Positions 3,744 to 37,200 of a DNA stretch of 64,000 nt are shown here, in pieces. The stretch is from Longimicrobiales bacterium (GTDB lineage: Bacteria; Gemmatimonadota; Gemmatimonadetes; Longimicrobiales; Gaopeijiaceae): contig OZ241869.1 of assembly GCA_965202805.1 (NCBI GenBank), positions 1,536,001-1,600,000 of the forward strand. Reading direction: 5' to 3'. Position 1 is the stretch's first letter. Each line of letters opens with the position of its first letter. The translations under genes were made by a program, and so were the position numbers. The notes below the pieces were generated by a model. It was given only the letters and a program-made list of their open reading frames with translations, was not told the DNA's origin and did not search any database.

Positions 3744-4913
3744 ATGCGTGATTTCCGGATCCTCGCCACGACGCTCGTGCTACTCGCGATTCCCCTTCCC
3801 CTGCGCGCGCAGGCGGTCCCGGACATCGCCGAGCCCTTCAAGGTCGGCACCTTCGAGATCGGGGGCACACCCACGGTGTCGCTGGTTCTTCGCGACCAGC
3901 TCATCGTCGAGGTCGACGCCGCTAACACCGCCCTCCAGCGCGATCCCTACTACGCCCGCGTGCAGGCCCCGGGCGATATGCTGGAGCTGATCGAGCGCTA
4001 CGAGTACGGCCTCCAGCGTCGCCTCTACGAGGTTGTCAACCACCTGGTCGAGAACGACATGCTGGGCGCGAACCGCCCGTCCTGGGTGCACGATCTCGGG
4101 GACGTGCGCACCCTCCCGCCCATCCTTTACCCGGGCAAGATCCTCAACGCCGCGGTCAACTTCTACAGCCACGTCAACGAGACCGGCACCGAGGAGGAGC
4201 GTGCCGAGGCCCGGCGGCAGCGGCGCGAGAACCGCGGCGTGCCCTATCTCTTCCTTAAGCCGAGCAAGGGCGCGGTCATCGGCGACGGTGGCGAGGTGGT
4301 GCTTCCCTACGGGCGCGACCGCATCGACTGGGAGGTCGAGCTGGGCGCGGTAATCGGCCGGTCCGCCAAGTACGTCTCCGCGAACGACGCCGAGGCCTAC
4401 GTGTTCGGCTATCTGGTGTCGCTCGACATCTCCGACCGCGGCGGGCGTCCGCCGGGCGGCAACCCCATGACCTCCGACTGGTTCGTGGGCAAGGGCCACG
4501 ACACGTTCGCGCCCCAGGGGCCCTGGATCGTGCCGAAGGAATTCTACGGCAACCCGATGGAGATCCTGCGCCAGACGCTCGACGTCGGCGACGAGCGCAT
4601 GCAGGAGGCCACCGCCGGCGACATGATCCACTCCCTCTGGGAACTGATCGAGTACGGCTCCTCCATCATCACCCTTTTCCCCGGCGACGTCGTCAACAAC
4701 GGCACCTCCGGGGGTGTCGGCATGGGCACGGCGGTTCGGGGCGCACAGCGCTTCCTGCAGCCCGGCGAGCAGATTTCCGCCTCCATCGACGGAATCGGCA
4801 CACTGAACCTGTCGGTGGTGAGCGAGCCCGCGCCGACTGGGCTCACGGGCGCGCACCTGCCGCCCGTGCGGACCTATCGGGGGCCGCCTCCGGGGGGAAC
4901 TGACGGGCCGTAG
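3744..4913 (+). CDS. Fumarylacetoacetate hydrolase (FAH) family protein with N-terminal signal peptide
   Basis: GGAGG RBS before ATG 3744; motifs PYLFLKP, DWEVELGAVIG, DISDR, GKGHDTFAPQGP, TLFPGDVVNNGT. Confidence 0.85.
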   Translation: MRDFRILATTLVLLAIPLPLRAQAVPDIAEPFKVGTFEIGGTPTVSLVLRDQLIVEVDAANTALQRDPYYARVQAPGDMLELIERYEYGLQRRLYEVVNHLVENDMLGANRPSWVHDLGDVRTLPPILYPGKILNAAVNFYSHVNETGTEEERAEARRQRRENRGVPYLFLKPSKGAVIGDGGEVVLPYGRDRIDWEVELGAVIGRSAKYVSANDAEAYVFGYLVSLDISDRGGRPPGGNPMTSDWFVGKGHDTFAPQGPWIVPKEFYGNPMEILRQTLDVGDERMQEATAGDMIHSLWELIEYGSSIITLFPGDVVNNGTSGGVGMGTAVRGAQRFLQPGEQISASIDGIGTLNLSVVSEPAPTGLTGAHLPPVRTYRGPPPGGTDGP

Positions 4914-4935
4914 CAGGGGGAACGCCTCGGGATCC

Positions 4936-4981
4936 TGGTAGGGGGGGCTCCTCCTTACCAAGGTGACATGTTGTACCTTGG
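4936..4981. promoter_or_regulatory. Two overlapping inverted repeats upstream of hicBA (terminator and/or operator)
   Basis: TGGTAGGGGG..CTCCTTACCA hairpin with G-U pairs (4936-4960) and CCAAGGT-N10-ACCTTGG (4958-4981). Confidence 0.35.
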
Positions 4982-5141
4982 GTGTCCGGTTCGATACGCT
5001 CGCTCAGGCCGCGAAGGTGCTGGGTCTCAATCTGAGGGTCGATCTGGTCGGGTAGGCTCGGCTGGAGAGAAGAGCCGCCCAATGAGGTCCCGGTCGGGCG
5101 CACGCCGGGTCGGATTCATCACACCAACGGGGCGTGGGGTC

Positions 5142-5345
5142 ATGAAGCTCACAATCGTTGTCCATGAGGCAGAGGAAGGCGGCTATTGGGCTGAAGTGCC
5201 GGCCATCCGTGGATGCGTCTCCCAAGCCGAGTCGCTTGATGAGTTGCTTGATAACCTGAGAGAAGCGATCGAAGGATGCCTCTCTGTTGATGCCTCGGAT
5301 GTTCCGGTCTCGGACACCGACAGAATCATCGAGATCGCTGTTTGA
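5142..5345 (+). CDS. hicB: HicB family antitoxin (short, no DNA-binding domain)
   Basis: MKLTIVVHEAEEGGYWAEVPAIRGCVSQAESLDELLDNLREAIEGCL is the HicB partial RNase H fold signature; 67 aa. Confidence 0.9.
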   Translation: MKLTIVVHEAEEGGYWAEVPAIRGCVSQAESLDELLDNLREAIEGCLSVDASDVPVSDTDRIIEIAV

Positions 5346-5548
5346 AGACGGTAAGCGGCAAAGCCTTTTGCCGACTGCTTGAGTCCCAGGGCTGGAGGCT
5401 GAGAAGAATCCGTGGAAGCCATCACATCTACACGAAGGACGGAGTAGCCGCACGGATTTCGATTCCCGTTCACGGGAACGCCGACCTCAAGCGGGGACTG
5501 CAAAGACACCTGATGAGAATCGCCGACGTGAGTGATTCGGATCTGTAG
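5342..5548 (+). CDS. hicA: HicA family mRNA interferase toxin
   Basis: TTG start overlaps the hicB stop; LESQGWRLRRIRGSHHIY...ISIPVHGNADLKRG carries the catalytic GSH motif. Confidence 0.9.
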   Translation: MKTVSGKAFCRLLESQGWRLRRIRGSHHIYTKDGVAARISIPVHGNADLKRGLQRHLMRIADVSDSDL

Positions 5549-5631
5549 ACCGAATCACACAAAGCGGAGGTTGCTCGCCGCAGCACGCAGGCGCAGCGGA
5601 TGGATCCGGCGCGATGGGAAGGGCATGGGCT

Positions 5632-8600
5632 TCACTTGTCTTCTGGCTCGGATCGAAGAGTGTCCGCAGCGGATCGGTCGGTTTCACTGTCCTTCGGTAG
5701 CGCATATTCGACGATTGCACCACCCTGGCTAACGAGCCGGAGCCGTTCACCCGGACCCGGTTCGCGCGGGTTCGGAAGCCAGTAGCACGCTGGCTGCTCG
5801 GTCAGCGTCCTCACTACGCGCAGGATGCGCCACCGCTCGTTTCTTCTCGGGGCAATGCGGGTTGCGGCGTTGAGTTCGCTCGACGGCAGTTCGAACCTGC
5901 GGCCCTCACCCTTCGTCGCCTTGACCTCGACACACCAAGTCACTTCGTCGCGCGTGAACCGAAAATCGTAACCGAGGCTGTCACTGGTAACGTCCCGCTC
6001 GGCGTCCAGCAGGGGCACGACCTTGGTTCTGGACTCGGAGACCCATGCGCTCTCGTTGATGCCGAACTTGGCCCGGAGGAAGCGGAAAGCGTGCATTTCT
6101 CCGACGATTCCCACGAGTCCGGGGAGGTCGGGCGGGCCATGCAGGTGCGAGGTCCTGGGTCTGCGCCGGCAGACCTCGCTGTCGTTGGATACGCTGGGTT
6201 GCGTTCCGCCGCCACCGTCTGGTTCCGGCGGTGGTGGACCGATCCCCTCGGCTTGCCTGGGGTCGGGGAGTTTCTCTAGTCGGGCAAAGAGTTCGCGGTA
6301 CGACACAGGCCCGCCGATTTCGAAAGGCTTCCCCGCGACCTCGACGGTTCTCTTGCCTCGCTCGTCCTCGTCAGTCTGCCGCTCACGCCTCTTCCTAATC
6401 CTCTCTAAGTCTTCATAAGTGATGCCGAGCGTGTCGCGCATTTTTTCAATCGTCGTACAATGCTTGACTTTAGCGTAGAAATCGCTGTCGGCGACCGCTA
6501 GCTTTGCGCGTTCGAGCAGGTCATGTTCCGGCCACTTGCGCAGGTACATGGAGTCGTCCAGCCGGACTTCGGGCACCTTTGCGCTTGACGGCGGCTCGGC
6601 TCCCTTGTTATCGAGCCAAGTCTCGTAGAGTTCAACCACCTCTTGGACAGCGTCGTCGAGACGCTTCTGATTGTCACGCGCCACGTCGAGCGGATCGGTT
6701 TTCAAGGCCACGCCTGTTCGCTCGAGTGCTGACCGGAATTCGGCGACGGTATTCGCGCGCTCGAAGACATCGGGATGCGGCCCGGCCTCGGAAACGCGCT
6801 CGCATCGTTCGCGCAGGACATCAAGCACCGCGCTAAACGGCACATCCCAGTGGTCCTGGGACCATTGGGTCCACAGCCGCGGCCATTCGGAATCCTTCTC
6901 AAGGCTCTCGTGGACCGCGTTGAGTCTGGAGAAGAGCTTACCCTGATCCACGGAGTCGTCGGCAGCCGATGTGGCGACATGCCGGGCCAAGGCGCGGAGC
7001 AATGGCGCGGCTTCATCCAGCCACCGCTTCGCCTGGGCTTCGGCTTGGGTGTTGCTGACCTGCTTGTACTTGCCGCCGAGCTCCGCCAAAGCCTTGTTCC
7101 ATTCCTTGAGTTCGGCGGCGTCACCCAGTACCCGCCACGTCCGATATCCCATCTCGGTGTCGTCCCAGCACTCCCTGGCGGTTGCCAACAGTTCCTCGGT
7201 GGGCCACTCGTCGATTTTGGCATTCTCCGACAGCCATCGGCTCAAACTGGAGGTGTCCTTTGCGGCGCCACCGAGACCGTCTTCGGAGATATCACGAAGC
7301 TGCAGCACCGGACGAATGCGGTGGGCGAGGGTGGATGGCTCGCCGTGCCAAAGATGCCGGATGTTGGCCACGGCCACGGCATCGATCTCCGCCCGGTCCA
7401 AGGCTGCCTCGATCTGGCCCCGGGTCGGTTGCGGACGGCCATTCAGGGCACCCAGCACGAGACGAAGATCCTTGAGGAGATCCTGCCGGTCGAGAATGGC
7501 CTGGGAAGCGGCCGCAATCTCGTCGTACAGTCCGCCGTGCGCGATGTCCCGGTGCAGGACGAGGATGCGATCCCGCGAAAGCCAGTGAGCTCGGGGCTGG
7601 CTGTATGCAACGCTCCGTCCCGCGTCCACAAGTTCTACTTGAATGAAGGCGCATTGCCGGACGCGCGCGCGGCGAAGTCGGGCGGCGGCTTGGCGCCACG
7701 CCTTCGTCGCGGGTCCCGCCGGGTTCCCGCCTCCGTGCGCGTGAAGGGCAAGCAGGACGACCGGAAGCCAGCCCAAGCCCGCCGCGTCGAGTGTCTGCGT
7801 CCCGTCCACCGTTTGGGTGCTCGAGGCATGGTCGATCCGGCAGTGTTCCTCCAGCCCGGCCGCCCGTCTCGCTCCTAGCTTCACGAGGCGGTCGCGGAGC
7901 GGCTTCTTCGACGCTTCCTCCGGTCGCATGGCGACGATCGGCTGGTCGTGTTCCCGCAGAAGCCGGGTTTTCCAACTGTGATCCGGAAGATAGACATCCT
8001 CGAGTTTCTCAGCCGTGCGCACAGTTAATGTGCGAGGCTTGGTGCGAATTATGAACCGCGTCGGAAGGTCACCCTCCAGGTCCAAGTGTCTCCATCCGTG
8101 GCGGACCTGGCCAAGGAGTACGTTGAACCGGCCCGCCGGCATTGCGTTGTGGTTGTGGGCGCCATGCGCCAGTCCCTCGGCGACATCGGCCAGTGTTTCC
8201 AGGAGAGCCGGTCCCGCTCGCGCTTCTTCAGTCGGATAGACGTTGAGTCCGAGTCTCTCCAGGGCCACAAGCACCTCCTCGTCTTTGCCCAGCTGCTGGA
8301 CCAACTGCAATGAGAGCGGCGACAGGTCGCGGAATTGGCCGCTCGGGCCTCGAAGAAGAGATCCGGGCACGAACCAGCGTTGGTGCAGCGGTTTGCGGTC
8401 TCGGAGTGCTCCCTGGTCACCGCCTGGGGCGTCAACGAGCCAGGGCAAAGTCGACAGCCAGTGTTGGAGCGGAGATGGGATCCGCTGTGCCCAGTACCAG
8501 TCCCCCCTTCTCAGTCTGATTCTGACTTTTCGCCAGCCGTCCTCCCATTGCGTGAGTGACGCGAGGACGAGTTGCGAAAGAGCCGCTCGAGCTGGGGCGT

Positions 8601-11400
8601 CGAGATCCTCGCGATGAAGCAAGGGAAGGGTCTTGACGTTCTGGAGTTCGTATTGGAAGTGTTGCGGGTAATCAGGCTTGACCTGCCCGAGCACCGCTTT
8701 TCTCCAATCGTCCCAACCCTGCTGCGGCACGGAGACGGGGGCGTTGTCGGGAAGCGCAGGATCGGAACTGTTCATCCGATACCGGGCGGGCTGGCAGGCG
8801 TGCAACCGCAGCCCGTCCACCACTCCCGCGCGGGCGAACTGTTCGGCGCGATCGGCGAGGTCGATCCCATGCGGCTCGCCGTCGGCACCGCGATTGTCTT
8901 CTTGCGGAAACCACCGGTCGTCGTCGCTGGGCAGGAGCGCGTTCCGCAGCAAGTCCTCGCCCTCGTCGCCAGGTAGGCCATCGGCCAGCGTTTTGAGGTG
9001 GTCGCCGGAGCGTCCGGTCCACCCTGGCCCGAATACGGCCTCCTTCATTGCGAACCAACCGTCGGTGCAGGCTACGGGAAGCTCGGCGAGGCGATCCAAC
9101 AGACCTTCTGGTTCCTCACGGCCAACCACTTCCAGACTCCAAGCCAGCGCGTCGGCGCACTTCGCCGCCTCGGGGCTGCCATGGGCGACCGGCAGGTCCG
9201 GAAGAGATGGGACGATGACCATTCGGAGAAGATCCGCTCTCCGAAAGCTCCGCACGAACCGGCCGTCGAGGAACTTCTGGATTTCGGTCCGCCGGCGCTG
9301 TGGTCCTTCGTGCGTCTCCACTTCGCGATGGAGGAATGCCATCCGCTCCTTAAGGGAGGCTGGAACGGAGGCGACGAAGTCCGACGCGTCGTCGGCGTCG
9401 GTGCGAGGCTGGAAGAAGATCCGAACATCGTCCGACGCCGAGAGCAGCCGTCCGTCCTCGGTGGGCAGGAACTCCGCCTCAGCGAGAGCGTCGGCTTCCG
9501 GCTTCCCGGGCTCGGACCGCAATATCGGCGGAAGCACGGCGAGCACACTTCCCAGGAACATGTTCCAGTCGGGCGGCACCTCCCGGGGACGGTATCCGTC
9601 GGCTTCGGGATCCGCTTGCCGCAGGCGGACCCGCTCGGCCATTCGCTCCAAGGTGTGCGCCCATTCCTCAATTCGTGGAGTCGCCGAGTCACCCAGAGAC
9701 CCCAGAAGACGCTCGACGGCCTCGCGACGCTCGTCGAGCGCGGACGATGCCACGTCGAATCCAGCCTGTCCGCGCCACTCGGCCTCGCCGAGGGGATCGT
9801 CGGTCGGGATGTTCGGCATCGTTCGTGCGACCGCGGACCGTCGCCAACCGCAGTCGCACAGGATCAACTCCATCTGCTCGAGGGAGATACAGTCCTCCCG
9901 GCCGCGGGCGCGTTCACTGAGGCGCCGCGTCAGCTCGGGATCGTCGGACGCGGGCGAACCGGCCTGCGCAAGCAGGTCGATCACCGCCCGGCCGCGCCAC
10001 GGCTCTGGGGAACCCTTCACCAGTTCGAGAACCGCGTCGAGTGCCAGGTCCGTCACCAATTCAAGCAGTAGTTCATTGTATTCGTCACCGAAGTTGATCT
10101 TCTTCCGGTCCAGAGATCCGTAGAACGGGGCATTGACGTGCGCGCCCACGCCGGTCTCCATCTTGGTGGGCAGGAAGATGACGAAAGCGCCGCCGCGTGC
10201 CTCTCGCGTCTCCTCGACGGCAACAGCGACCTCCACCGTCCGCACCTCCGGCCATCGATTCGGAAGGTGGCGGACAGCCGCGGCAAGACGCTTGGCCTCC
10301 GCTGGCTGGTCAGCCCCTCCGAAGGTCCGGCTCCAGACGTGGAAAGACCGCTGGGTCACGTCGCTAGCGTCGCCCGCCCGCCTGCTCACTCGTAGTCGCT
10401 CATGCCGGGCGGCCGGCACGGGATTGGAGAGCTCGGAATCGATCCGGCGCTCGAGCTCCGTGTGTTCTTCGTCAATGGTGATCCGAAGCACCGACAGGTG
10501 ACGCAGGAACACCATCGCTGCCTCGTCCAACGCCCCAAGTTGCTCGCTGACCGACTTGACAGCTTCGTCGGCGCTGCCCGCCCGCCCGCCGTCCAGTGGA
10601 AGGCGAATGACCGTCACATGGCCATCTTCGAGAAGCCTCGCCACCTCGGGCGGCGGATCGCCGAGAAAGCGCGGCAGCACATAGGCCGAGAGGTGTTTGA
10701 CCTCTTCGGAGAGCCACTTCTCGACCTCTTCCACGGATTTGGTGCCGTTCCCGGACATGGTGCCCCGGTATTCCTCGATCTGTTTCTCCGACCAGTCCAC
10801 GACCGGTTCCTCGCCGAATGCCGAGTCCGTCGGCGCGTCACCGTTGAAGAGCTGCTTGGCCACATGGGCTATCGGATCAAGCACATTGGGATGGAAGCCG
10901 AACGTAAAGGCGGGCTTGTCTTCCGCTGGCGCCGTCGACCACACCTCCGGACGGGTTGTCAGTTCGAGCACGCTCCGAAAGCCCAGCCCTTTGTTACCGA
11001 CGCTCTCGTTCGGATTCTTGGGGCTCTGCGCGAGCTGGCAGATTCCGCTGAAGTCTTCGCGGCGAAAGGGCCGGCCGCTGTTGGCGATCAGCAACTCGGG
11101 TTGCTCGCGGGACGAGTTCAGCACGAAGGAGACCTGGCACCGGTCGTGGCTGCCGCCACCGAGGACATCGTGAGCATTCTGCAACAACTCCAGCACGGCT
11201 CGTCCCCGGTACTCCTGCGCCACCTGATCGCCCAGGCTGGCGACGGTCCGGTAGTTCGTCGTCCTGTTCCTCAGCTCGTCGAGAAAGGTGCGCACCTGAC
11301 GGCGGGCCTGCTCCTCAATGATCCGTCGGCCTGCCAGTCTCCGCTTGTAATCGAACCTCGGCGGTCCTTCAGTGGTCTGGTTGACGAGTTGTTCCTTCAT
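5632..11400 (-). CDS. 1922-aa sacsin-like GHKL (HSP90-like) ATPase with C-terminal DUF3883/NOV-C-type PD-(D/E)XK nuclease domain; putative anti-phage protein
   Basis: N-terminal ELLQNAHD, ANSGRPF, VGNKGLGFRSV, FLPT..G...HVNAPFYGSLDRK; C-terminal GIVGEMHAFRFL...DSLGYDFRF...VEVKAT...FELPSSE; AGGAG RBS upstream. Confidence 0.8.
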   Translation of the reverse strand: MKEQLVNQTTEGPPRFDYKRRLAGRRIIEEQARRQVRTFLDELRNRTTNYRTVASLGDQVAQEYRGRAVLELLQNAHDVLGGGSHDRCQVSFVLNSSREQPELLIANSGRPFRREDFSGICQLAQSPKNPNESVGNKGLGFRSVLELTTRPEVWSTAPAEDKPAFTFGFHPNVLDPIAHVAKQLFNGDAPTDSAFGEEPVVDWSEKQIEEYRGTMSGNGTKSVEEVEKWLSEEVKHLSAYVLPRFLGDPPPEVARLLEDGHVTVIRLPLDGGRAGSADEAVKSVSEQLGALDEAAMVFLRHLSVLRITIDEEHTELERRIDSELSNPVPAARHERLRVSRRAGDASDVTQRSFHVWSRTFGGADQPAEAKRLAAAVRHLPNRWPEVRTVEVAVAVEETREARGGAFVIFLPTKMETGVGAHVNAPFYGSLDRKKINFGDEYNELLLELVTDLALDAVLELVKGSPEPWRGRAVIDLLAQAGSPASDDPELTRRLSERARGREDCISLEQMELILCDCGWRRSAVARTMPNIPTDDPLGEAEWRGQAGFDVASSALDERREAVERLLGSLGDSATPRIEEWAHTLERMAERVRLRQADPEADGYRPREVPPDWNMFLGSVLAVLPPILRSEPGKPEADALAEAEFLPTEDGRLLSASDDVRIFFQPRTDADDASDFVASVPASLKERMAFLHREVETHEGPQRRRTEIQKFLDGRFVRSFRRADLLRMVIVPSLPDLPVAHGSPEAAKCADALAWSLEVVGREEPEGLLDRLAELPVACTDGWFAMKEAVFGPGWTGRSGDHLKTLADGLPGDEGEDLLRNALLPSDDDRWFPQEDNRGADGEPHGIDLADRAEQFARAGVVDGLRLHACQPARYRMNSSDPALPDNAPVSVPQQGWDDWRKAVLGQVKPDYPQHFQYELQNVKTLPLLHREDLDAPARAALSQLVLASLTQWEDGWRKVRIRLRRGDWYWAQRIPSPLQHWLSTLPWLVDAPGGDQGALRDRKPLHQRWFVPGSLLRGPSGQFRDLSPLSLQLVQQLGKDEEVLVALERLGLNVYPTEEARAGPALLETLADVAEGLAHGAHNHNAMPAGRFNVLLGQVRHGWRHLDLEGDLPTRFIIRTKPRTLTVRTAEKLEDVYLPDHSWKTRLLREHDQPIVAMRPEEASKKPLRDRLVKLGARRAAGLEEHCRIDHASSTQTVDGTQTLDAAGLGWLPVVLLALHAHGGGNPAGPATKAWRQAAARLRRARVRQCAFIQVELVDAGRSVAYSQPRAHWLSRDRILVLHRDIAHGGLYDEIAAASQAILDRQDLLKDLRLVLGALNGRPQPTRGQIEAALDRAEIDAVAVANIRHLWHGEPSTLAHRIRPVLQLRDISEDGLGGAAKDTSSLSRWLSENAKIDEWPTEELLATARECWDDTEMGYRTWRVLGDAAELKEWNKALAELGGKYKQVSNTQAEAQAKRWLDEAAPLLRALARHVATSAADDSVDQGKLFSRLNAVHESLEKDSEWPRLWTQWSQDHWDVPFSAVLDVLRERCERVSEAGPHPDVFERANTVAEFRSALERTGVALKTDPLDVARDNQKRLDDAVQEVVELYETWLDNKGAEPPSSAKVPEVRLDDSMYLRKWPEHDLLERAKLAVADSDFYAKVKHCTTIEKMRDTLGITYEDLERIRKRRERQTDEDERGKRTVEVAGKPFEIGGPVSYRELFARLEKLPDPRQAEGIGPPPPEPDGGGGTQPSVSNDSEVCRRRPRTSHLHGPPDLPGLVGIVGEMHAFRFLRAKFGINESAWVSESRTKVVPLLDAERDVTSDSLGYDFRFTRDEVTWCVEVKATKGEGRRFELPSSELNAATRIAPRRNERWRILRVVRTLTEQPACYWLPNPREPGPGERLRLVSQGGAIVEYALPKDSETDRSAADTLRSEPEDK

Positions 11401-11430
11401 CTGCCGGCCTGCTCCTAAGTCGTTGTGGCC

Positions 11431-12510
11431 TCACCCCACCCCCGGCCCGCTGACCTGCCACTCCACCACCTCGAGCGGCTCCCCCAGCAGAGCCGCCCCT
11501 CGCACCGGTGAGATCAGCTCCTCTCCCACGGCACGCCAGACCAGCCGCCTGAAGCGCTGCGGCTTCTCAAAAGCACCGAATCCCTGATCGTCACCCATCG
11601 GCTCCGGTTCCGTTGTTCGCCACGACCGGGCGAATGTGGCGAACGCGCGCCGGACCGCGGAAGGCCGCAGCACCCCCACCTGACCGAGGCGTACCAGCAT
11701 GGCCGCCGCCGAGACGCCGTAGGTGTGCTTGAGACGCGCGATCTCGTAATAGGTGACGCGGCGGCGCCTCGCTCCGACCTTTGCTAGGAGATCCCGGCCG
11801 GGGACGAGGAACGCGCCCGCGAAGCGGTTCATCGCCGCCTCCAGCTTGATGGCGGGGTTGCCGGTTGACCGGATGATCTTGTGGGCGAGTTCGTGGGCCA
11901 GGGTGAAGCGCTTGCGTTCGACGTTCGTCCGGCTGGATACCACCACCGCATCGGCGACCACCCTCCCCCGCCGCATGGCCCGGCACGCCAGGCCGCTGAT
12001 GCGCTCGGGGAGGTCGGCCTCGACCACCTTGATCCCTTTATCCTCCAGGAGAGCGCACAGGCTGGGCACCGGATCCATGCCCAGGTCCCATGCTTCGCGG
12101 AGTTGATCGGCGCGGTCGTCGATCTCGGCCTCGGTGGCGATGCAGTCGCAGCGGCAGTGCTCGAAACGGTCGCCCGCCGGCGGCAAGCCGAGAACCTCCT
12201 CGATGGTCAGATACCGCTCGAGGTTGTCGATCAGGACGGCTTCGGCTCGGGCTCGGTCGCGCGCGGAAGTGCCCGGGTCCTTGCGGAACTCGAGGCCGTC
12301 GAGGACATCGACCCGGTCGCTCATGAGGAAGTCCAGCGAGACATCGAGCGCCTCGCCAAGGCCGACGAGAACGGCCGACGAGGGCATCATCTTGCCCGCC
12401 TCATACTTGCTGATGGCCTGCGCGCTGACCTTCGGATCCATCCGCTCGGCAAGCGACCGCAGGGAAAGGCCCGCTCGCTTGCGGGCCAGCCGAAGTCGCC
12501 GTCCGAACAT
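11431..12510 (-). CDS. XRE-family HTH fused to ImmA/IrrE (peptidase M78) zinc metallopeptidase
   Basis: N-terminal RLRLARKRAGLSLRSLA...SAQAISKYEAGKMMPS HTH; C-terminal RKRFTLAHELAH (HExxH) and EAAMNRFAGAFLVP. Confidence 0.9.
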   Translation of the reverse strand: MFGRRLRLARKRAGLSLRSLAERMDPKVSAQAISKYEAGKMMPSSAVLVGLGEALDVSLDFLMSDRVDVLDGLEFRKDPGTSARDRARAEAVLIDNLERYLTIEEVLGLPPAGDRFEHCRCDCIATEAEIDDRADQLREAWDLGMDPVPSLCALLEDKGIKVVEADLPERISGLACRAMRRGRVVADAVVVSSRTNVERKRFTLAHELAHKIIRSTGNPAIKLEAAMNRFAGAFLVPGRDLLAKVGARRRRVTYYEIARLKHTYGVSAAAMLVRLGQVGVLRPSAVRRAFATFARSWRTTEPEPMGDDQGFGAFEKPQRFRRLVWRAVGEELISPVRGAALLGEPLEVVEWQVSGPGVG

Positions 12511-12539
12511 GCCGTTTTCTCCCCGTCCCTGTTACCGGT

Positions 12540-12578
12540 GGTTGACATAATACATGTACATTGGTATTAGTGTCAACC
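12540..12578. promoter_or_regulatory. AT-rich inverted repeat containing two opposed TTGACA boxes (operator with overlapping promoters)
   Basis: GGTTGACA-TAATAC-ATGTACATTG-GTATTA-G-TGTCAACC; minus strand reads TTGACA-N18-TATTAT towards the XRE gene, plus strand reads TTGACA-N17-TATTAG. Confidence 0.7.
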
Positions 12579-12634
12579 TGCAGTTGAGGATTGCCGAACA
12601 GGATGGCCGACAGTCGGGACGACGGGGAGGGGAC

Positions 12635-13018
12635 GTGGACAACGCAACGCGGCAACGGCCGCACATCATGGAACTGATCGACAACGCACCCTGGCGCGAG
12701 GCCGTCACCTACCGGAAGATCTGGCCCCATGAGTACGTGGTCGTCAAAAAGGACGGCCAGGAGGAGTTGCTGGCCGCGTTCTGCGAGCGCATCGAGCGTG
12801 GCGAGGGCATCGAGTGCCGGTTCTTCCACCAGACACGCCGGTACCTCTTCCTCGACGACTACAAGTACTGGATCATGGTGGAGTGCAGCGACATCGACCT
12901 CGACGCCGAGGACCACGTTCTGAACCGCGCGCGCTTCTACCGCGACAGGCGGGACTTCGTGATTCAGAGGGGCGATACCGGAAGCCGAGAGGACTACCCG
13001 GCGAACCCGGCGGATTAG
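12635..13018 (+). CDS. Small hypothetical protein (W..A.TY....PHEY...YL..D.YKYW.M...NRA pattern)
   Basis: GGAGG before GTG 12635 (alternative ATG 12668); coding-like codon bias; ends 15 bp before the nuclease gene. Confidence 0.7.
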   Translation: MDNATRQRPHIMELIDNAPWREAVTYRKIWPHEYVVVKKDGQEELLAAFCERIERGEGIECRFFHQTRRYLFLDDYKYWIMVECSDIDLDAEDHVLNRARFYRDRRDFVIQRGDTGSREDYPANPAD

Positions 13019-13033
13019 CGGGCCAGCGGCGCG

Positions 13034-14512
13034 GTGGACTCCATCTCCCGGCTCCTGAACCACCTGGAGGAGGTTCGGCAGGCACGAAACGAGGATTGCG
13101 TCCGTTTCCTGCAGGAGTTGACCCCGCCCCTGCACGCCACTCGCGCGGTCAACCGCGAACTGGATCGCCACCTCGCGCGCCGCTTCAACGTCTTCCGCTA
13201 CCTCCGCGACGACGAACTCGGCCTCTCGCGGATCATCGCCGACCTGCTCGATCCAGAGGGCGAGCACGGTCAGAGCACGACCTATCTGGAAGCGATGTTG
13301 GGGTTGCTGGAGGTTCCGTTTCGGTGCACCGCCTCCGACGAGATTCGGGTCCTGCTGGAGCGTGGGATCTCGGGAGGCAGGCGCATCGACGTCACGGTGG
13401 ACATCCCGACAGACGACGGGCCCTTCTGCCTCGCACTCGAGAACAAGCCGCGCGCCAACGACCAGCCCGGGCAATGCAGCGACTACCTGAAGTTCCTCAA
13501 TGAGAAATACGGCAAGCGCTTCCTCCTGATCTACCTGCCACCCCGCTACCGGATGCCCGACGAGTCCAGCCTTCGGTCGGACGATTATCGCAGGCACTGG
13601 ACGAATCACTTCCGCGTGCTGCCCTATGTTGCAGGCGATGCTCCGCATGGCGACGACGATCCCTCCGACGACGATGGCGGGGCCTTGGTGCGAGGCGACT
13701 CGGGCGCGGACTACGCGCGTACCGAGGACGATGCGCTTGCCGAGGACAAAGCCACAGATCACGAAGCTACGCCTGCCCATGCTGACGCGGTTGTCGGTGA
13801 AGGCGCCTCGCTGGCGGACTGGTTCGGAACCTGTTGCACGCTCAGCGACCCCGAGCGGCTGCGCTGGTTCCTCCGAGAGGCGCAACTATATTGCCGAGAA
13901 CATTTTGGAGATTCGACCATGGCTGACACCGAAGCCCGCTACATTCGCGAGTACCTTGACGAGAACCCGAGACACCTCCATGCGGCGTACGCGGTGGCCC
14001 GAGCCTGGCCCACCATCAAGCACGATGTCTGCCGACGGTTCCTGGAGCACTTGCGGGACAGGGTTGAGGAACGGTTCTCCGAGGAGATGCCGGAGATTCG
14101 GGACGACTTGCAGGTCAGTTGTCGGTACGATGACGAAAAGAAGTGGTCAACCCAGCTCAAGTTGAGGAGAACGATCATGATTCAAGCCGGGGGGCCTGGG
14201 CCCAGGCGATGGATCTGGGGCGTCCGCAACCCAAACCCGAAGACGCTGCGCGAAGAACTGCTGGCCGAGCTGAGGCGTCACGACCTCTCGCTTCAACATG
14301 CCAGCGACGGGTGGCCTCAATGGGAATACCTCCCTCGCTATGGACACTGGGACCGCCGTGTCCCTGAACTCGTCCAGGAACTTGCCGAAGGCGGCGGCAA
14401 AATCACCGATTATTATGTCAACGGGCTCCTCAACATCGCCGAAAAGGCTATCCCCGCCTTTGACGAAGTGGAGCTGGCGAACCAGAGCCCCTCGGCTTCG
14501 GAGGACTCCTGA
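13034..14512 (+). CDS. PD-(D/E)XK superfamily nuclease (PDDEXK_4-like)
   Basis: FNVFRYLRDDELGLSRIIADLLDPEGEHGQ, RRIDVTV, LALENKPRANDQPGQCSDY, LLIYLPP. Confidence 0.82.
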   Translation: MDSISRLLNHLEEVRQARNEDCVRFLQELTPPLHATRAVNRELDRHLARRFNVFRYLRDDELGLSRIIADLLDPEGEHGQSTTYLEAMLGLLEVPFRCTASDEIRVLLERGISGGRRIDVTVDIPTDDGPFCLALENKPRANDQPGQCSDYLKFLNEKYGKRFLLIYLPPRYRMPDESSLRSDDYRRHWTNHFRVLPYVAGDAPHGDDDPSDDDGGALVRGDSGADYARTEDDALAEDKATDHEATPAHADAVVGEGASLADWFGTCCTLSDPERLRWFLREAQLYCREHFGDSTMADTEARYIREYLDENPRHLHAAYAVARAWPTIKHDVCRRFLEHLRDRVEERFSEEMPEIRDDLQVSCRYDDEKKWSTQLKLRRTIMIQAGGPGPRRWIWGVRNPNPKTLREELLAELRRHDLSLQHASDGWPQWEYLPRYGHWDRRVPELVQELAEGGGKITDYYVNGLLNIAEKAIPAFDEVELANQSPSASEDS

Positions 14513-14542
14513 ACCGATCCCCCGCCAACCCGCCTCCGAACC

Positions 14543-18265: not shown

Positions 18266-18338
18266 TGGAGCCAGCCGGAATCGAACCGGCGACCTCCTGC
18301 GTGCAAAGCAGGCGCTCTCCCGACTGAGCTATGGCCCC
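18266..18338 (-). tRNA. tRNA-Ala (anticodon TGC), CCA not encoded
   Basis: Minus strand GGGGCCATAGCTCAGTCGGGAGAGCGCCTGCTTTGCACGCAGGAGGTCGCCGGTTCGATTCCGGCTGGCTCCA folds as a cloverleaf with G3:U70 Ala identity and a GTTCGA T-loop. Confidence 0.97.
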
Positions 18339-28236: not shown

Positions 28237-28275
28237 CTCACGTATTCGGTTCGAAACTCACGTATTCGGTTCGAA
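28237..28275. repeat. 19-bp direct tandem duplication of the PKS 3' end including its stop codon
   Basis: CTCACGTATTCGGTTCGAA at 28237-28255 and 28257-28275. Confidence 0.9.
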
Positions 28276-31200
28276 CCAGTAGCGCTCGCGCTGAAAAGGG
28301 TAGCCGGGTACCGAGATCCGGCGCCGCGCTTCTCCCGCAAACAGTCCGGTGAAGGAAACCGGAAGGCCTGCCTCGTACGCCCGCGCCACCCACTGTTCGA
28401 ATGTGCCCGGCGCACGCCCTGCGCCGTTCGGCCAATCCTTCAGCGGCACGGGGCCCGGCACGGGGCCGGCACCGATCTCCAGAACCAGATCGACGTCGAG
28501 ATCCGCCAGCCCCCGGGTTGTTGCGCGTGCCACCTTTGCCGTGCGCGCCTGCTCGCGCCAGTACGCGACGTCGAGGGCCTCCGCGGGGCCGACGGCTCGT
28601 CCGCTCACCTGACTCAGGATGGCAAGCGAGGGTGACGAAAGCGCGATCTCGGGGAACGCCGCTTCCATAACGTCCATACCCAGTGCGGATGCGAAGCGAA
28701 GACCGTCTTCGAGGCCGAGCACCCCCGCGCTCCATGCCGCCGCCAACACGCCGACCCCGCGCCCCGACACCACGTGGGGCCGGATCCCGACGCTCGCCCA
28801 AAGCGCCGTAACCGCACACTCGAGGGCGAAGGTCGCTGGTTGGCTCCAGGCCGGGTCAATAGCCTCCGCCTTGCCGGTGGCCTGGCCGAACACCAGATCC
28901 CGCAGGGTAATCCCGCGCAACTGGTCCCGGAAGACCTCGTCGCAGCGATCCAGAATCGCGCGCACCACCGGCTCCGTCCGGTACAGAGTCTTCGCCGTCC
29001 CCGCCCATTCGCCACTCCCGGAGGCGTAGGAGAAGGTCAACTTCGGTGTCGTGGCGGCCGCCCGTGACGACATCGCCCCGTCCGAGCGTGCGACGGCGCG
29101 CAACCCCTCAAGCAGAGAGCCGGCATCGTGGAAAACAATGCCCGCCCGGTGCGGGAAATGGTCACGCCCGACGCCCGCGGTCCAGGCCATGTCCGACAGC
29201 AGGGAGTCCGCAGCCCCACGCTCCGCATCGAGATCCCGGGCCCGCGCGTCGAGCCAGGCGAGATACCGTTTCGCCAACTCGCGCAGCGCTTCGTCCGTCT
29301 TGCCGGAAATCGGCAGGATCCGGACAACGCGGGGGTTGACGTCACCTGATGCAGGCGGCTGTACCGTCAGCGGCTCCGGGATCGGTATGCCAACGGTTTG
29401 CGCGGGCCCGGCGGGCGCGCCCGGCGCGTCGGTCGCATGGGAGGTGTCATCGGGCGGTTCGTAGCCCTCCACGACGACATGAGCGTTGGTGCCCGATATC
29501 CCGAACGCACTCACGCCGGCACGTCGAGGCCGATCAGGATCCCGGGGCCAGCGCGTCGCCTCCGATGTCACCCGCACTGGAAGCGCGTTCCAGTCCACGT
29601 GCTCGTTCGGTCTCCTGAAATGGAGGTGCTTCGGGATCACTCCCCGCTTCATCGACAGCATGATCTTGATCAGCCCTGCGATTCCCGCAGCCGACTCGAG
29701 GTGGCCGATGTTGGTCTTTACGGAGCCGATCAGGAGTGGACGGCTCGGCTCGCGTCCCTCGCCGTAGACTGCGGCCGCCGACTGCACCTCGATCGGATCC
29801 CCCAGCGTGGATCCGGCTCCATGAGCTTCCAGATAGTCCACCTCCCCGGGTGCGACGCCGGCGCGCTCGAGTGCCTCCCCGATCACGCGCTGCTGCGCTC
29901 GCCCGTTCGGCACCGTCGGCCCCGCAGTCGCCCCGTTCTGATTGACCGCGGTGCCGCGAACAACGCCCCAGATCCGGTCACCGTCGGCCTCCGCTTCACG
30001 AAGCCGCTTGAGGACGACCATCCCACAACCCTCGCTCCGCACGGACCCGTTCGCCGAGGCGTCGAAAGTCTTGCACCGGCCCTCCGGCGACAGCATCCCC
30101 AACTCGACCATCTCCCTGGTCAGCCCGAGCGAGAAGATGGCGTTCACGCCTCCGACCAGCGCCAGGTCCACTTCACCCTGCCGCAGGGCAGCTACGGCGT
30201 GGTGCACGGCGACCAATGACGCCGCACAGTTGAGGACTACCGGCATCGTGGGTCCCATGAGCCCCAGCTTGTAGGCAATCCCGCCGAGCGCCATGGAACT
30301 CGCGGTGCCGAGATAATTGAGGTCCTGGCCGCCCGCCAGCATCATGAGGTCACGGTACTCGCTGGTTGCGATGCCCGCGTAGACGCCCGTGTTGCTGCCC
30401 CTCAAGCTCTCCAGATCGATTCCCGCGTCCTCGAACGCCCGCCAACTGGTCTCCAGGAGAAGCCGCTGCTGCGGGTCCATCAAGCGCGTGCCGATCGGCG
30501 TCATGCCGAAAAAGCGCGCGTCGAAACGGTCGATCCCCTCGACGAACCCCCCTCGGCCCCAGGCGTTGTCTCCGGCCGCGGGGTCGCCTGCAATCCCGGC
30601 CCAGGACCCGTTATCCTGTCGCCCGCTCGTCACGGCCTCTTGGCCGGCTTCGAGCTGGCTCCAGAAGGCCCGCAGATCCGGGGCACCGGGGAAACGGCAC
30701 GCCATGCCGACGATGGCGATCCCATCGTCCTCCCGCGGCGGCGGCGGGGCCGGCCCGGACGTCGGCTCGGGGGCGGAGACCGGCTCGGGGATGGGGACCG
30801 GCTCGGGGACGGTCGCCGACTCGGCGAGCGCGTCCACCAGATGGCCGGCGAGATCGTCGATGGTCGGGTAGTCGAATACCAGCGTATTCGGCGCGACATA
30901 CCTCTCGGAGAAGCTCCGGTTGAGGCGATTCCGCAGTTCGACCGCCATCAGAGAGTCCATCCCCAGGTCGAAGAATCCGACCGTGGGCGCCGGCGGCGTC
31001 GGCAGCCTCAGCACTGCCTGGACTTCCCCCTGCAGGAAGGATACGAGCAGGCTCTCGCGCTGCGCCGCCGGGGTCGTAGCGAGCTGTGCCAGCAGGTCTT
31101 CCGACAAGGATGGGCCGTCGTCGTCCCCGGCGACAGCGAGCAAGTCCTCCAGGAGGGGCGGACGGCCTCCGATGGATTCGCCGAACACCGGCCAGTCCAC

Positions 31201-34200
31201 CGCGGCCACCACGGCGCCCGTTGCATCCTGCCGCAGCAGGCGCTCGAACACCATGAAGCCCTGCTCAGGCGTGAACCAGCCCGTGCCGGATGCCTCTCGC
31301 CGCCCCGCGATTCGTTCGCGCTGCTCCTCCGCCTCGCCCAGCTCCGACCAGGCACCCCAGGCAATGGCTTGCCCGGGAAGCCCCACCGCACGCCGGTGGG
31401 CGGCGAGCTGATCGAGGAATGCGTTGGCGGCCGCATGGTTGGCCTGGCCCGGATTGCCCAGGACTCCGGCGACGCTGGAGAACAGGACGAACATGTCCAG
31501 ATCGCGTTCCATCGTCGCGCGGTGAAGATGCCAGGCCCCCAGCATCTTCGGCCACAGCACGGTCTCGAAGCTCTCCCAGCTCTGGTTCCCGAGGGCTGCG
31601 TCCGACAGCACGCCGACGCCATGGATGACACCGGCGAGCGGCGACAGCGTCCCGTCGATCCGCTCCAGCATGGCATCGAGCGCGGCCGTGTCCGTTACGT
31701 CCGCAATCTCCACCTCGATCCTGAACCCGCGAGCGCGCAGCGCCTCGATCATTTCTTCCGCCGCCGCGTCCGGCGACCGGCGGCCGTTCAGCACGACCGA
31801 TCCCGCGCCGCGCTCGGCGAGCCATTCGGCGAGGGCCAGACCAATGCCGCCCAACCCGCCCGTCACCAGATAGGTCCCATCCCGCCTTAGCCGCCCCGTC
31901 CTGAGTGGAGGCGCCGTCAAGACGATCTTGCCGATGTGCCGAGCCGCGCGCATGTAGCCCATCGCGGCGCTCGTTTCGGCGAACGGCCAAATCGTGTGCC
32001 TGAGCGGCGCAAGCTCACCCGTCGCGATGCGCGCCAGCACGCCGTTCAAGGCGGCACCCGGTCCCGCCGGGTCCTTCTGCTTCAGGGTGTAGAGATCGAG
32101 GATCGCATAGGCGACATCCGGCCGCAGCGCCGCCATCTCGTCCTCGCTGAGGATGTCCCGCCTGGCAAGCTCCACGAAGCGGCCGCCCTCGGCGAGGCAG
32201 GCGAGGCTCGCCTCGATGAAGCCTTCGCCGGTAAGGCTGTTCAGCACGACGTCGACCCCGGCGCCCCCTGTCGCATCGAGGATGCCCTGGCCGAACGCGG
32301 TCGAACGGCTGTCGAACACGTGCTCGACGCCCATCGAGCGGAGATGGTCCCGCTTGCGCGCGCTCGCCGTGGCGAAGACCTCCGCGCCTGCTGCCTGGGC
32401 CAACTGGATGGCCGCAAGCCCGACGCCGCCGGCCCCGGCGTGAATCAGCACACGGTCTCCGGCCTTCAGCCCGGCGAGCTCGTAGGACAGCACGCACGTT
32501 ACGAATACCGAAGGGATCGTGGCGAGCGCCGTGGCCGACACGTCCGGCGGGGCAAGCGCCACCAGTTCCTCCCGAGTGACGACCTCCGGCCCGAAGGTAC
32601 CGAACGCGAATCCGGCTACGCGATCGCCCACGACGAAGGTGGTTACGTCGGCCCCGATCTCGACGATCCGGCCGCACAGTTCCTCGCCCAGCGACCCCTC
32701 TTCCTCGACCAGGCCCATGGCCCGGAACACGTCCAGGAAGTTGAGCCCGCAGGCCTCGACCTCGACCCGCACCTCCTTCGGTGCCAGGGCACGGGGCGAC
32801 AATGGCTCGATTCCCAGCGCCTCGATCGCCCCGCCCTCGCCGGGCGCCAGCACCCAGTCCGCATCTTCCGGCAGGGCGAGGCGCTCCACGCCGGCGCCCG
32901 CCCGCACGAGCCGGGCCGCCTGGCGGCGCCCCTGGCGATGCGCGATGTGGTTCTCCGCATCGGGGAACAGCACTTCGTCCGCGAGGACTGCGTGTGGCTG
33001 CGCTGCCTCGGGGTCGAGGTCGATCATCCGCGGTTGCATCTGCGGCGCCTCCCGCGACACCACCTTGCCGAAGCCCCAGAGGGGGGTGCCGGCCAGTTGC
33101 CCGGTCCGTTCCCGTTCGAGCACCTGCGCCCCCCGGGTGACGAGCCACACGCCCTTCCCGGGCACGGCATCCGCGTCCGTGATGCCCTGCACAAGCGCGA
33201 GCGCGCTCGCCGACGCCCGCCTGGCATCCGCCGCGATGTCCGCAGTTGTCGCCGCCGCCCCGTGGCCGTCCTGTGCGACGAGATGCACCGCGCCGGCGAA
33301 GGGTACATCGGAGGGCAGGCCTTCGATAAGCGATCGCCACGACTCGCGCCGCTCAATGTCGACCGGTGCCGCAATGATCGCGGCCTCGCTCTCCGCAGCC
33401 GGGGTCGCGGCCTCCGGATCGTCGCCCGCCAGCACCACCCGCTGGTTCTGTGCCGCCAGTTGCGCCGCCAGCTCCGCCGCCACGCCACCCCGGTCGGCAG
33501 CCAGGACCCAAACGCCCTCCGGCAAGGCGATCTCGGCCGGACCCTGCGCCACGATCACCCCTCGATCCGGCAAGCCGGCCACTTCCTCCAGGTCCAGGCC
33601 GAGCACCTCGGATTCCGCAAACCCGGTATCCGCGAGTGCCCGCCGCCATACTTCGGGCCCCGCGAGAGCGTGGTCCGCGCGGTAGCGATCGTCGAAGCGC
33701 CACCATCCGTCCAGCTGCCCGAATATCAGATCCATCCAGCCCCTGCCGCGCTGGTTTTCGAGCGCCAGCAGCAGCCCGGAGGGCGCGAGGAGCGTCCTGC
33801 AGTGGGCAAGCGTCTCATCCAGATGGCGCGTGGCGTGCAGGACGTTGGCCGCGATTACCAGGTCGTAACCGTGGGCCTCGAAGCCCTGGTCCACCGGGTC
33901 CTTCTCGATGTCGAGCACCCGGTAGTCGATCGAGGCATCCTCGGCGCTGAAGCGTTCCTCGGCCTCCGCGAAGAAGCCCGCGGAGATGTCGGTATACATG
34001 TAGTCGAACCGTCCCGCCGGAAGCTCGGGCAGGACGTATTCGGTCGCCGAGCCGATCCCGGCGCCGACCTCCAGCACGCGCAGCCGTCGGCCCTCCGGCG
34101 ACTCGTCCAGGAGGGTGCGAACCACCTCGCCCAGCATCCGGTTCGCCGCCCGCCAGACCGCCGCCCGCCGATAGAGATCGGCAGCCGTCGGCTCCGCATC

Positions 34201-37200
34201 GCCGAACAGCAGCGACAGCGGATCCGCATTGCCGCGAAGCACCTCGGGCAAGGCGCCGGCACAGCGCCGAAACAGCCCGATCTCGTTCGTCGCGTGCGGG
34301 AACCGCCCCTCTGTCTCGCTCAGAAACGCCTCGACGTCGGGCGGCATTTGATCCGGCAACGGCTCGTCGGCTCCGATCGTTACGACGAAACCCTCGTCCT
34401 TCGCCTGCAACACACCTGAACGAGCCAGTATCGCGAGCATCCGGCGCAACAGATTCGTGTGCTCGGGCAGGACTTCCAGGCGCACGCACAGCTCTTCCGG
34501 GTCCACTACCGCTCCCGCCCTGCGCTCCCACCCCAGCGTTTCGAGCGCCGAAAGCGCGTAGCACCACGACACCCGCTCCATAACACCCTGCAGGTCGGTC
34601 TCGTCCGCGACCTCGACTCCCTCGTCAGCCAGATAACCGGAGAAGGCCCGCGAGCGGGAGGCCGCGGCCGACGGACTCGGAAGGAAGTCCGCCGCCGGCA
34701 TGCCCGGCGGCAAGACGCGGTCCCGCCATACGACCTCGTATAGCAATTCCTCCAGCCCCTCCACCGCAGGGAGCAGAGCACTCCGCGTCGCCCGCTTCAC
34801 CGTGTACCCGTTCAGCGTGCCGATCGGGGATCCGCCGAGGTCGCAGAGGGTGATGTCCGCGCTCAGCACTTCGGGTGGTTCACTGCCTGCGCTCTCCGGC
34901 GACCCCCTCATGCGGACATGGCAGAGCACCCGTTCCGGAAGCCGCTCCGGCACCGAGAGCCGTTCCCAGCCGAAGGGCAAATAGGTGACGTCTTCGTCGG
35001 ATGCGACCGTTCCGCGGGCGGCACCCATCACTTGAAAGCAGCCGTCCAGAACGAGCGGGTGAAACGCCATCCCGCTGCTGTCGGCAGAGTCCGGCAGGGA
35101 TACGGCGCCCAGGGCTTCGCCCGGCCCGGCCCAAAGCGCTTCCAATGTGCGGAAGGAGGGGCCGAGATCGATCCCGACCTCCGCCTTGGCCCGGTAGTAG
35201 GGCCCGAGGTCCACCGGCGCCAGATTGGACCTGAGCCGTGCTGGATCCGGCGATCCGTCCACGGGCGGCAGATCGGAACCGGAGCTTGTCGAGACCCGGC
35301 CCTCCGCGTGCAGCGTCCATTCCTCGTCGGGAGCCCTGCTCAGGATCCGGACGCGCCGCGAGCCACCGTCTCCGCCGCCGTCGAGCAGCAACTGAAGGCG
35401 ACGACCCTCTTCCCCGCTTCCGTCTGCATCGCCCGTCTCGGGGAACACCAGTGCGCTCTGCATCTGGAAGTCCTCGACGACCACTGGACCGGGGTCTTCG
35501 ACGGTGCAGGCCGATGCCGCCATGGCGCCAAAGAGCGCGCCGGGAGCCACCACCCGGTCGAACACGCGGTGGTCGCCAAGCCATGCCGGGTCGGAGGGAA
35601 ACAACTCGGTGTCGAAGCTGATCTCGCCGCTGGCAGATTCGTGGCGGCTGCCGAGGAGCGGGTGATCGGCGCTCGAGCGCCTCCGTCCTGGCGCGTCGAT
35701 CCAGTGGCGGTCGCGGCGGAACGGATACCCCGGCAGCGAGATTCGGCGCCGCGACTCTCCGGCGAAGAGCCCGTCGAAGCATAGCGGCAGCCCCGCGTCG
35801 TACGCTTCCGCTACCGCTGCGAAGAAGGCGTCTTCGGCCTCCGTTGCTGAAACGTTGCGTCCAGGCCGCTTGAGACTCGACAGCGCCACGGGAGGCTCGG
35901 GGGTCCCTGCCGACGCGGGCCAGGCGAGAGTGGTCATCGGCCCGAGCACCGCGTGCGGACCGATCTCCACGACCGCGTCCACACCCAGTCCCGCCAGCGT
36001 CTCGACGCAGGCGCGGAACGCCACCGGCGCGCGCATCTGCCGCCGCCAGTACGCCGCATCCAGCGCCTCGCCCGAACCAACCGTCCGTCCGGTGAGATTG
36101 CTGATGAAGGGAAGCGAAGGTGGCGCAAAGGCGACCCGCGAGAGAGCTTCCTCCAGATCGTCCAGAGCCGGCTCGATCATGGCGCTGTGGTAGGCGGGAC
36201 TCTTCCGGAGCCGCGCGACCCGAATCCCCGCCGCCTCCAGACGCTCGAGGATCGCGGCGACCTCCGCCGCCGGACCGCTGATGACCTGATGAGCGCCGTT
36301 GTCGGCGGCGATGCAGAGGCCGACGCCACGGCAGGCCGCATTGTGCTCGTCCAGCGCATCCGCGACGTGAGTGGCCGGCGCGAACACCGCGGCCATCGCG
36401 CCTTCGCCGGGAAGGGCGCCGACCAGCTCTCCCCGCGCCGCCGCAAGGCGCAGGCCATCCTCCAGGCCGAACACGCCCGCGGTGTGGGCCGCCGCGATCT
36501 CGCCCAGGCTGTGCCCCAGCACCACGTCCGGCCGAATGCCGAGGCTTGACCACAGCGCCGCGAGGGCGCATTCGAGTGCGTAGATCGCGGGCTGCTTCCA
36601 CTGCGGATCGTCCAGGTCGCCGGCGGCCGCAGGGCGACCGAACATCACGTCGAGCAGCGAGGCGTCACGCTCTCCCCGGAGCACCTCGTCGCACCGATCG
36701 AGCACCGCTCGCACCACCGGCTCGCTCGCATGGAGCCCCGCGCCCATGCCCGGCCACTGACTGGCCTGTCCGGTGCAGGCGAAAGCAATCTTCCCTCCCG
36801 CCCTCGGCCGCGACTCCGTTCGCGGACGCTCTTCCGCGGAGACGAGCGTCCGCAACTCCTCGCGCAACGACGCGCCGTCCCGGAACAACACGCCGGCTCG
36901 CCGGTCGAAGTGACTGCGCCCCACACCCGCCGTCCAGGCCATGTCCGCAAGGAGCGCTTCATCCGCGCCGCTCATGGCGGATGCCTTCCCCACTCCTGCG
37001 TCGACCCAATCGAGATACCGACCTGCCAACTCGCGGAGCGCCTCTTCGGACTTGGCGGAAAGCGGCAGGATACGCGTCACGCGGGCAGAGAGCTTTCCCT
37101 CCCGCGACGCGGGCAGGGGCAGCGCATGCGTGCGCTCCTCCGCAAGCGACACGGGCGGCACGGGGACCGGCAAGGCGGAGCCGACCGGCCACCGTCGGCC

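Follow-up and report, generated by a model that had tools for sequence, protein, structure and literature searches.

The 9.6-kb insert described here lies within 64,000 nucleotides of a Longimicrobiales bacterium (contig OZ241869.1, positions 1,536,001 to 1,600,000; "the window" means this whole stretch) and contains a tmtA gene of the Tiamat type. We favor the explanation that the insert is built around a mobile two-gene core, which consists of a helix-turn-helix (HTH) regulator fused to an M78 peptidase, a divergent gene for a small protein that we call WPHEY, and a palindrome, and to which exchangeable cargo is joined; the fusion probably keeps both promoters repressed up to the point at which its own peptidase domain is predicted to inactivate it. 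The fused regulator is of a known type, with its architecture already in print, and the other parts are mostly of known types as well. New here are Tiamat in the slot of a PIN toxin, and WPHEY itself. The features, in window coordinates and with lengths in amino acids (aa), are as follows.

4898..14541, strand not assigned: variable insert between convergent FAA-hydrolase and DUF885 genes, with junction contigs and empty sites in the genus
5632..11400, minus strand: tmtA, 1922 aa, GHL ATPase of Tiamat with a PD-(D/E)xK (DUF3883/NOV_C) nuclease at the C-terminus; cargo
11431..12510, minus strand: XRE HTH fused to M78 (ImmA/IrrE) zinc peptidase, 359 aa, CapH-CapP-fusion/RmrA-like; core
12541..12587, strand not assigned: putative operator with sigma70 promoters that face each other, GTTGACA-N23-TGTCAAC-N5-GTTGA
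12635..13018, plus strand: WPHEY protein, 127 aa, GTG start with GGAGG upstream, homologues beginning at the same position; core
13034..14512, plus strand: PD-(D/E)XK nuclease, 492 aa, PDDEXK_4, like PADLOC candidate PDC-S26; cargo

Core and cargo genes at a variable site

An earlier note on this DNA had described four open reading frames (ORFs) in two divergent pairs, and their coordinates hold: 30 bp separates the regulator stop from the tmtA start, and 124 bp lies between the regulator and WPHEY genes. The note had also read the block as a defense insert with a lower guanine-cytosine (GC) content than its flanks. Both descriptions stand. The GC content is 64.0% compared with 69.8% and 69.6% in the flanks and 68.4% genome-wide. 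The insert encodes TmtA and a nuclease, and 13 of 18 genomes of the genus have nothing at its site. An equally low GC content was found in 19 of 416 insert-sized windows. These 18 genomes, out of 19 searched, carry both flanking genes; at the five occupied sites, regulator and WPHEY are always present and tmtA is present in three. Contigs from public sequencing runs bridge 4894/4897 to 14552/14542. Contigs of run X4 show the empty site, those of runs X10 and X20 show an allele without tmtA and hicBA, and those of runs X6 and X7 retain tmtA with hicBA replaced by 1240 other bases. No integrase was seen inside the insert.

A FastTree phylogeny of 38 regulator genes (a remnant, L040, and a partial gene, G427, were excluded, and some rows are near-identical strains) placed all 18 regulators with a divergent WPHEY gene in one clade (support 0.98), which is nested among PIN-linked regulators (the PIN label of G434 was assigned by eye). 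WPHEY is truncated at one of the 18 loci (G361). PIN was not found at any of the 18, and a PIN query had no match in the window's genome; the regulators of the WPHEY clade have lost PIN. Downstream of the regulator, tmtA is present at five of the 18 loci (G005, G008, G340, L019 and the window's own genome, G000), two of which have an unassigned 390-aa gene in between. A PDDEXK_4 gene follows WPHEY at three loci (frameshifted in G012), and alternative cargo comprises a GmrSD-like gene in G011, Azaca in G010 and, in L041, PDDEXK_4 on the same arm as the regulator, with PDDEXK_4 thereby found on either arm across loci.

The earlier note had treated the four genes as one system. All four do stand together, but only at two of the 18 regulator loci. 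If TmtA and the PD-(D/E)XK nuclease cooperated in a genuine system of four genes that DNA damage induces, this would account for the recurrence of all four in G005 and, as fragments, in runs X3 and X6. We regard such a system as highly improbable given alleles with tmtA and no nuclease (G008, G340, L019), with the nuclease and no tmtA (G012, L040, run X10), or with none of the genes.

Selection and codon usage set the core apart from the cargo. In pairwise Nei-Gojobori comparisons against the window, in which pairs are not independent, the ratio of nonsynonymous to synonymous substitution rates (dN/dS) was 0.05-0.15 for the regulator, 0.09-0.22 for WPHEY, 0.29-0.36 for tmtA, 0.38-0.56 for the nuclease and 0.07-0.16 for the flanks. 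By the same method, the dS of tmtA in G005 was 0.66 compared with 0.17-0.29 for its neighbors. Third-position GC content (GC3) was host-like in the core (0.84 and 0.89) and lower in the cargo (0.75 and 0.77).

The intergenic palindrome

A palindromic operator had been proposed for the intergenic region. The palindrome, GTTGACA-N23-TGTCAAC, is real (12541-12577) and overlaps two face-to-face -35 boxes, with TTGACA-18-TATTAT as the predicted leftward promoter; a third half-site forms a second repeat, TCAAC-N5-GTTGA, at 12573-12587. Of 37 regulator genes, 31 have the palindrome upstream, compared with none of 20,000 random windows, and 25 have the second repeat there, compared with 10 of 20,000, where both patterns were derived from the same 37 loci and related loci are not independent. 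Across loci the spacer varies, and the half-sites and the TAnnnT -10 element of the regulator promoter are kept; the palindrome accompanies the regulator gene even where WPHEY is lacking. Because a promoter scan gave a single match, equal to the count expected by chance (0.8), it is this conservation that carries the case for an operator. No terminator-like site was found between the regulator and tmtA. A genome-wide regulon was considered and rejected, as the 4.02-Mb genome contains a single copy of the full motif. At L039:9940-9978, the regulator ATG lies one base past the palindrome, which indicates that the leader is gone and is in keeping with transcription without a leader from the predicted -10 element.

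The fused regulator and its relatives

The comparison of the regulator with CapH/CapP made in the earlier note is borne out by matches to Pfam HTH_3 and Peptidase_M78. It also matched 14 PADLOC hidden Markov models (HMMs) for RmrA with up to 147 bits (best E 1.6e-43), models that match other XRE-M78 proteins too; PADLOC HMMs were run on their own, without the PADLOC system rules. The peptidase residues H206, E207, H210 and E224 are conserved, and the HELAH motif is in place at residue 206. In the structural model (predicted local distance difference test, pLDDT, of 90), residues 197 to 354 form only helices, and a CapP-type C-terminal GAF domain was not found. The cysteine switch, which is not a universal feature of the CapP type, is absent as well, with no cysteine between H210 and E224. 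In CapP, single-stranded DNA (ssDNA) is sensed between the peptidase and GAF domains (10.64898/2026.05.16.725639). Because the regulator model is all-helical past residue 197, the ssDNA sensor is missing, and induction by DNA damage, as the earlier note had suggested, is an unsupported analogy.

Relatives of the regulator occur in known contexts. Of 46 plasmid records that matched at E 1e-30, we examined five of the closest, and all five (60-62% relatives) had PIN/VapC directly 3′ and DUF2188 on the opposite strand; in two, CBASS (an anti-phage signaling system based on cyclic oligonucleotides) lay behind DUF2188. Relatives in Gemmatimonadota (50-80%) face ThiF/DUF6527 ubiquitin-like genes, IetAS, a CBASS cyclase, PD-Lambda-5 or DUF2188. 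These contexts agree with those of Lau et al. (10.1101/2022.04.27.489752), who describe CapH-CapP fusions with vapC, and DUF2188, facing defense operons. An association of COG2856-Xre with PIN has also been described (PMC2701414). Cleavage of the HTH has been proposed for fusions of the COG2856-Xre type, and RmrA antitoxins pair with unrelated toxins (PMC10440598); RosmerTA itself is defined in 10.1101/2022.05.11.491447. No RmrT HMM matched any of the four locus proteins.

A second HTH-M78 fusion in the window's own genome (G000:C1:1959121-1960386; 27-29% identity) has neither the operator nor recognizable defense neighbors. A complete RosmerTA pair (RmrT at E 4e-44 and an RmrA-like gene) is present at L037:5406-7158 (G041) with an LmuA-like gene nearby, and two tandem regulator copies stand upstream of an MmeI-type IIG restriction-methyltransferase at L166:4858-10958 (G186).

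Proposed regulation of both arms

In the scheme that we favor, an HTH dimer would bind at both -35 boxes, to the GTTGA/TCAAC half-sites that overlap them, and tmtA would be co-transcribed from the regulator promoter, in the slot held by a PIN toxin in related loci. Cleavage by the M78 domain would lift repression in response to a signal that need not be ssDNA. TmtA might then act as an ATP-driven clamp with ssDNase or nicking activity, as has been shown for Bacillus cereus Tiamat, and the second arm would contribute a nuclease, to which WPHEY would be a nucleic-acid-binding accessory. Uninfected cells would benefit from low levels of costly nucleases, with TmtA and the second nuclease made on demand. 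There is precedent for a toxin-antitoxin (TA) repressor that throttles a defense nuclease (PMC13064477).

Several observations weigh against this scheme. We infer each of its regulatory steps, namely binding, cleavage and expression, and the inverted repeat is in part two TTGACA boxes. The regulator has neither the GAF domain nor the cysteine switch. The regulated operon in Lau et al. (10.1101/2022.04.27.489752) is the one on the opposite strand, which here is the WPHEY-nuclease operon and not tmtA. Such a regulator is missing from nine of 14 close tmtA loci (one of these nine ends at a contig end 0.5 kb upstream), and the regulator-less genes are preceded by pglZ, GmrSD-DUF4268, PDC-S11 or PDDEXK_4; because these genes follow others, TmtA can do without the regulator. 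Nine of the 18 core loci have no recognizable defense cargo beside either arm among the hand-picked ORFs scanned, and the core may therefore be kept for reasons unrelated to cargo.

The lack of recognizable cargo at half of the core loci would also be expected if the fusion were an orphan antitoxin, left over from an HTH-peptidase/PIN pair and only regulating itself, with tmtA, the nuclease and hicBA as promoterless or independent passengers that had gathered, without regulation of any consequence, at a hotspot flanked by convergent genes. The genes upstream of tmtA in the phylum, of which there are at least five different ones, fit this alternative, as do the five regulator-linked tmtA genes, which do not form a single clade. 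However, the regulator, its catalytic residues and the operator have been under purifying selection after PIN was lost, and tmtA lies 4-30 bp or one gene 3′ of the regulator at no fewer than two chromosomal sites and in further strains. We consider the orphan antitoxin unlikely and retain the regulated core with exchangeable cargo.

TmtA

Judged by its sequence, the 1922-aa gene is Tiamat tmtA, as the earlier note had suspected from its architecture: the product matches PADLOC model PDLC03971 over residues 24-1899 (E 1.5e-200, 667 bits). Its N-terminus matches NF047352 (Hsp90-like ATPase) above the cut-off and Pfam SACS at 31.5 bits, just below the cut-off of 32.8, and its C-terminus matches PF13020 (NOV_C/DUF3883) above the cut-off. 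The motifs ELLQN (71) and YD..EVK (1811-1827), which had been pointed out along with HELAH, are present, and residues E71, N75, G135-G140, E1768, D1812, E1825 and K1827 are invariant in all eight aligned relatives. The protein thus shares with Tiamat the N-terminal GHL ATPase, the long middle, the C-terminal PD-(D/E)xK domain and the catalytic residues, and differs in having no Pfam match to DUF3684 at E 0.1. Tiamat of B. cereus has ATPase activity, cuts ssDNA and introduces nicks into double-stranded DNA (10.64898/2026.09.30.754977); anti-phage, ATPase and DNase activity have been shown for B. cereus Tiamat only, and we predict them for this TmtA by analogy.

The relatives of the gene come from Longimicrobiales and Gemmatimonadota metagenome-assembled genomes. 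Among 401 genomes of the phylum, 14 have the TmtA family, 22 have the regulator, and three have the two adjacent; among all 14 close tmtA loci gathered, five follow the regulator. TmtA is a mosaic, with 40 to 89% identity to relatives by 150-residue bin and conflicting trees between regions. The main text of the Tiamat preprint (10.64898/2026.09.30.754977) gives helicases, methyltransferases, MADS1-like HTH proteins and WYL proteins as neighbors and no XRE, ImmA/IrrE or CapH. The accessible literature, which includes that preprint apart from its supplements, yielded no report that places Tiamat under an HTH-peptidase regulator.

A protein of 383-393 aa adjoins tmtA, on either side, in five of 14 close loci (L010:12873-14054 in G008; also G005, G340, L019, G238 and G010 among the loci that contain it). 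It had no Pfam or PADLOC match, its Atlas neighbors were all hypothetical, and it is not present in the window's genome. At L171:3441-14991 (G238), the gene for this protein and tmtA stand in line between pglZ and brxL in a bacteriophage exclusion (BREX) operon. At L014:5442-10089 (G006), a different HTH-M78 fusion (27% identity) is convergent with a 1032-aa TmtA-like gene.

WPHEY and the downstream nuclease

WPHEY belongs to no Pfam or NCBIfam family, and its sole PADLOC match had E 0.046. We collected 1243 homologues of similar length and 623 cluster representatives; W, P, H, E and Y of the motif, together with YWxM and NR, are conserved across 58 distant rows. A scan of 23 representatives that were longer or atypical showed DUF4268 in four and an ADP-ribosylglycohydrolase domain in one (P0189). 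Of four that were rescanned, two matched PDC-S11, and three further ones have a PD-(D/E)xK-like motif by eye. At 14 of 23 close metagenome loci, which come from few samples and include some duplicates, a nuclease-like gene follows WPHEY on the same strand within 316 bp, and two distant loci sit upstream of zacA. Because of the nuclease fusions and the aromatic residues, WPHEY may be a nucleic-acid-binding accessory. Fold searches gave a best Z of 4.6 among 48,161 chains, and the model had no Foldseek match at E 0.001 and no usable Atlas match; one of five models passed pLDDT 70, so these searches identify the fold as neither new nor known. The family is new, without a Pfam or fold match and fused to or preceding several nuclease families, and we found no report of the motif or family in the accessible, largely non-subscription literature.

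The gain of WPHEY and the loss of PIN on one branch could indicate a RosmerTA-like pair, in which WPHEY would have taken over from PIN as cognate toxin or partner and be neutralized by the fusion, with the addictive pair stabilizing whichever cargo it carries. The purifying selection on WPHEY at loci without a downstream nuclease and the readiness of RmrA antitoxins to take unrelated toxins (PMC10440598) are consistent with such a pair. On the other hand, a single branch is one event, the two genes are divergent, WPHEY is fused to nucleases, and the regulator clade is present at only four of the 23 close metagenome loci and absent from 19. L040, furthermore, keeps WPHEY beside a mere regulator remnant. 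We judge this pairing very unlikely. A bolder extension of the core-and-cargo explanation, which we consider unlikely, is that the PIN-to-WPHEY clade is a portable two-way promoter switch that captures Tiamat, GmrSD, Azaca and PD-(D/E)XK genes, with WPHEY as an undescribed small fold that would read foreign or modified DNA, aim several nuclease families and trigger the GAF-less peptidase.

The nuclease encoded after WPHEY has D119, E136 and K138 invariant in all five aligned sequences. It resembles PDC-S26 (PDDEXK_4) in its N-terminal nuclease domain and differs in that the match covers residues 40-182 only.

Comparison with related systems

Like CapH-CapP, the regulator combines an HTH with an HExxH...E M78 peptidase and stands opposite to and upstream of a defense operon; CBASS, IetAS, Azaca or ubiquitin-like arms in relatives correspond to the WPHEY-nuclease arm here. 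It differs in that it is fused, without GAF domain or cysteine switch, and has lost PIN, in that WPHEY replaces DUF2188, and in that cargo is also found on the regulator's own strand. RosmerTA and the COG2856-Xre fusions with PIN or RelE (PMC2701414, PMC10440598) share the RmrA-like domain architecture, whereas this locus has TmtA in the slot of an RmrT or PIN partner. In Pez-Ham (PMC13064477), a TA-derived repressor likewise acts over a nuclease defense system, although the regulator and defense system are different ones and the control was shown by experiment. WPHEY is fused to or precedes PDC-S11 (DUF4268 nuclease) proteins and has no model of its own.

The locus is a compact natural test of what GAF-less fused HTH-M78 regulators sense and cleave, and of whether Tiamat has to be throttled at transcription. 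WPHEY is abundant in bacteria associated with sponges and rich in aromatic residues. It recurs ahead of, or as a fusion with, at least three types of nuclease and the Azaca system, and is a good candidate for a new defense accessory domain.

Other features of the insert and window

The insert contains one further pair of genes.

5142..5548, plus strand: hicB-hicA toxin-antitoxin pair, convergent passenger (Pfam HicB_lk_antitox, HicA_toxin)

The earlier note had placed hicBA at the border of the block, where it is indeed present; its membership in the module was rejected on co-occurrence, and the pair is a separate, convergent passenger. We also rejected a tRNA-anchored island, as the sole tRNA gene of the window (tRNA-Ala, 18266-18338, minus strand) is 3.7 kb away from the insert. 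Phages or plasmids as carriers of the close family were rejected on searches of viral contigs and plasmids: the regulator matched none of the viral contigs, WPHEY had one distant locus in viral contigs and no plasmid match, and TmtA had one plasmid match (27%).

Run X20, the sole RNA-labelled run (share 0.05), gave short contigs over the regulator, WPHEY and the start of the nuclease gene, which are uninformative on transcription. Among the habitat-labelled runs, those that contain at least a fifth of the stretch are metagenomes from sponges and, in one case, a marine metagenome. A 3434-aa ORF with a ketosynthase-like beginning (window 28258-38562, minus strand) may encode a polyketide synthase of the type common in sponge symbionts.

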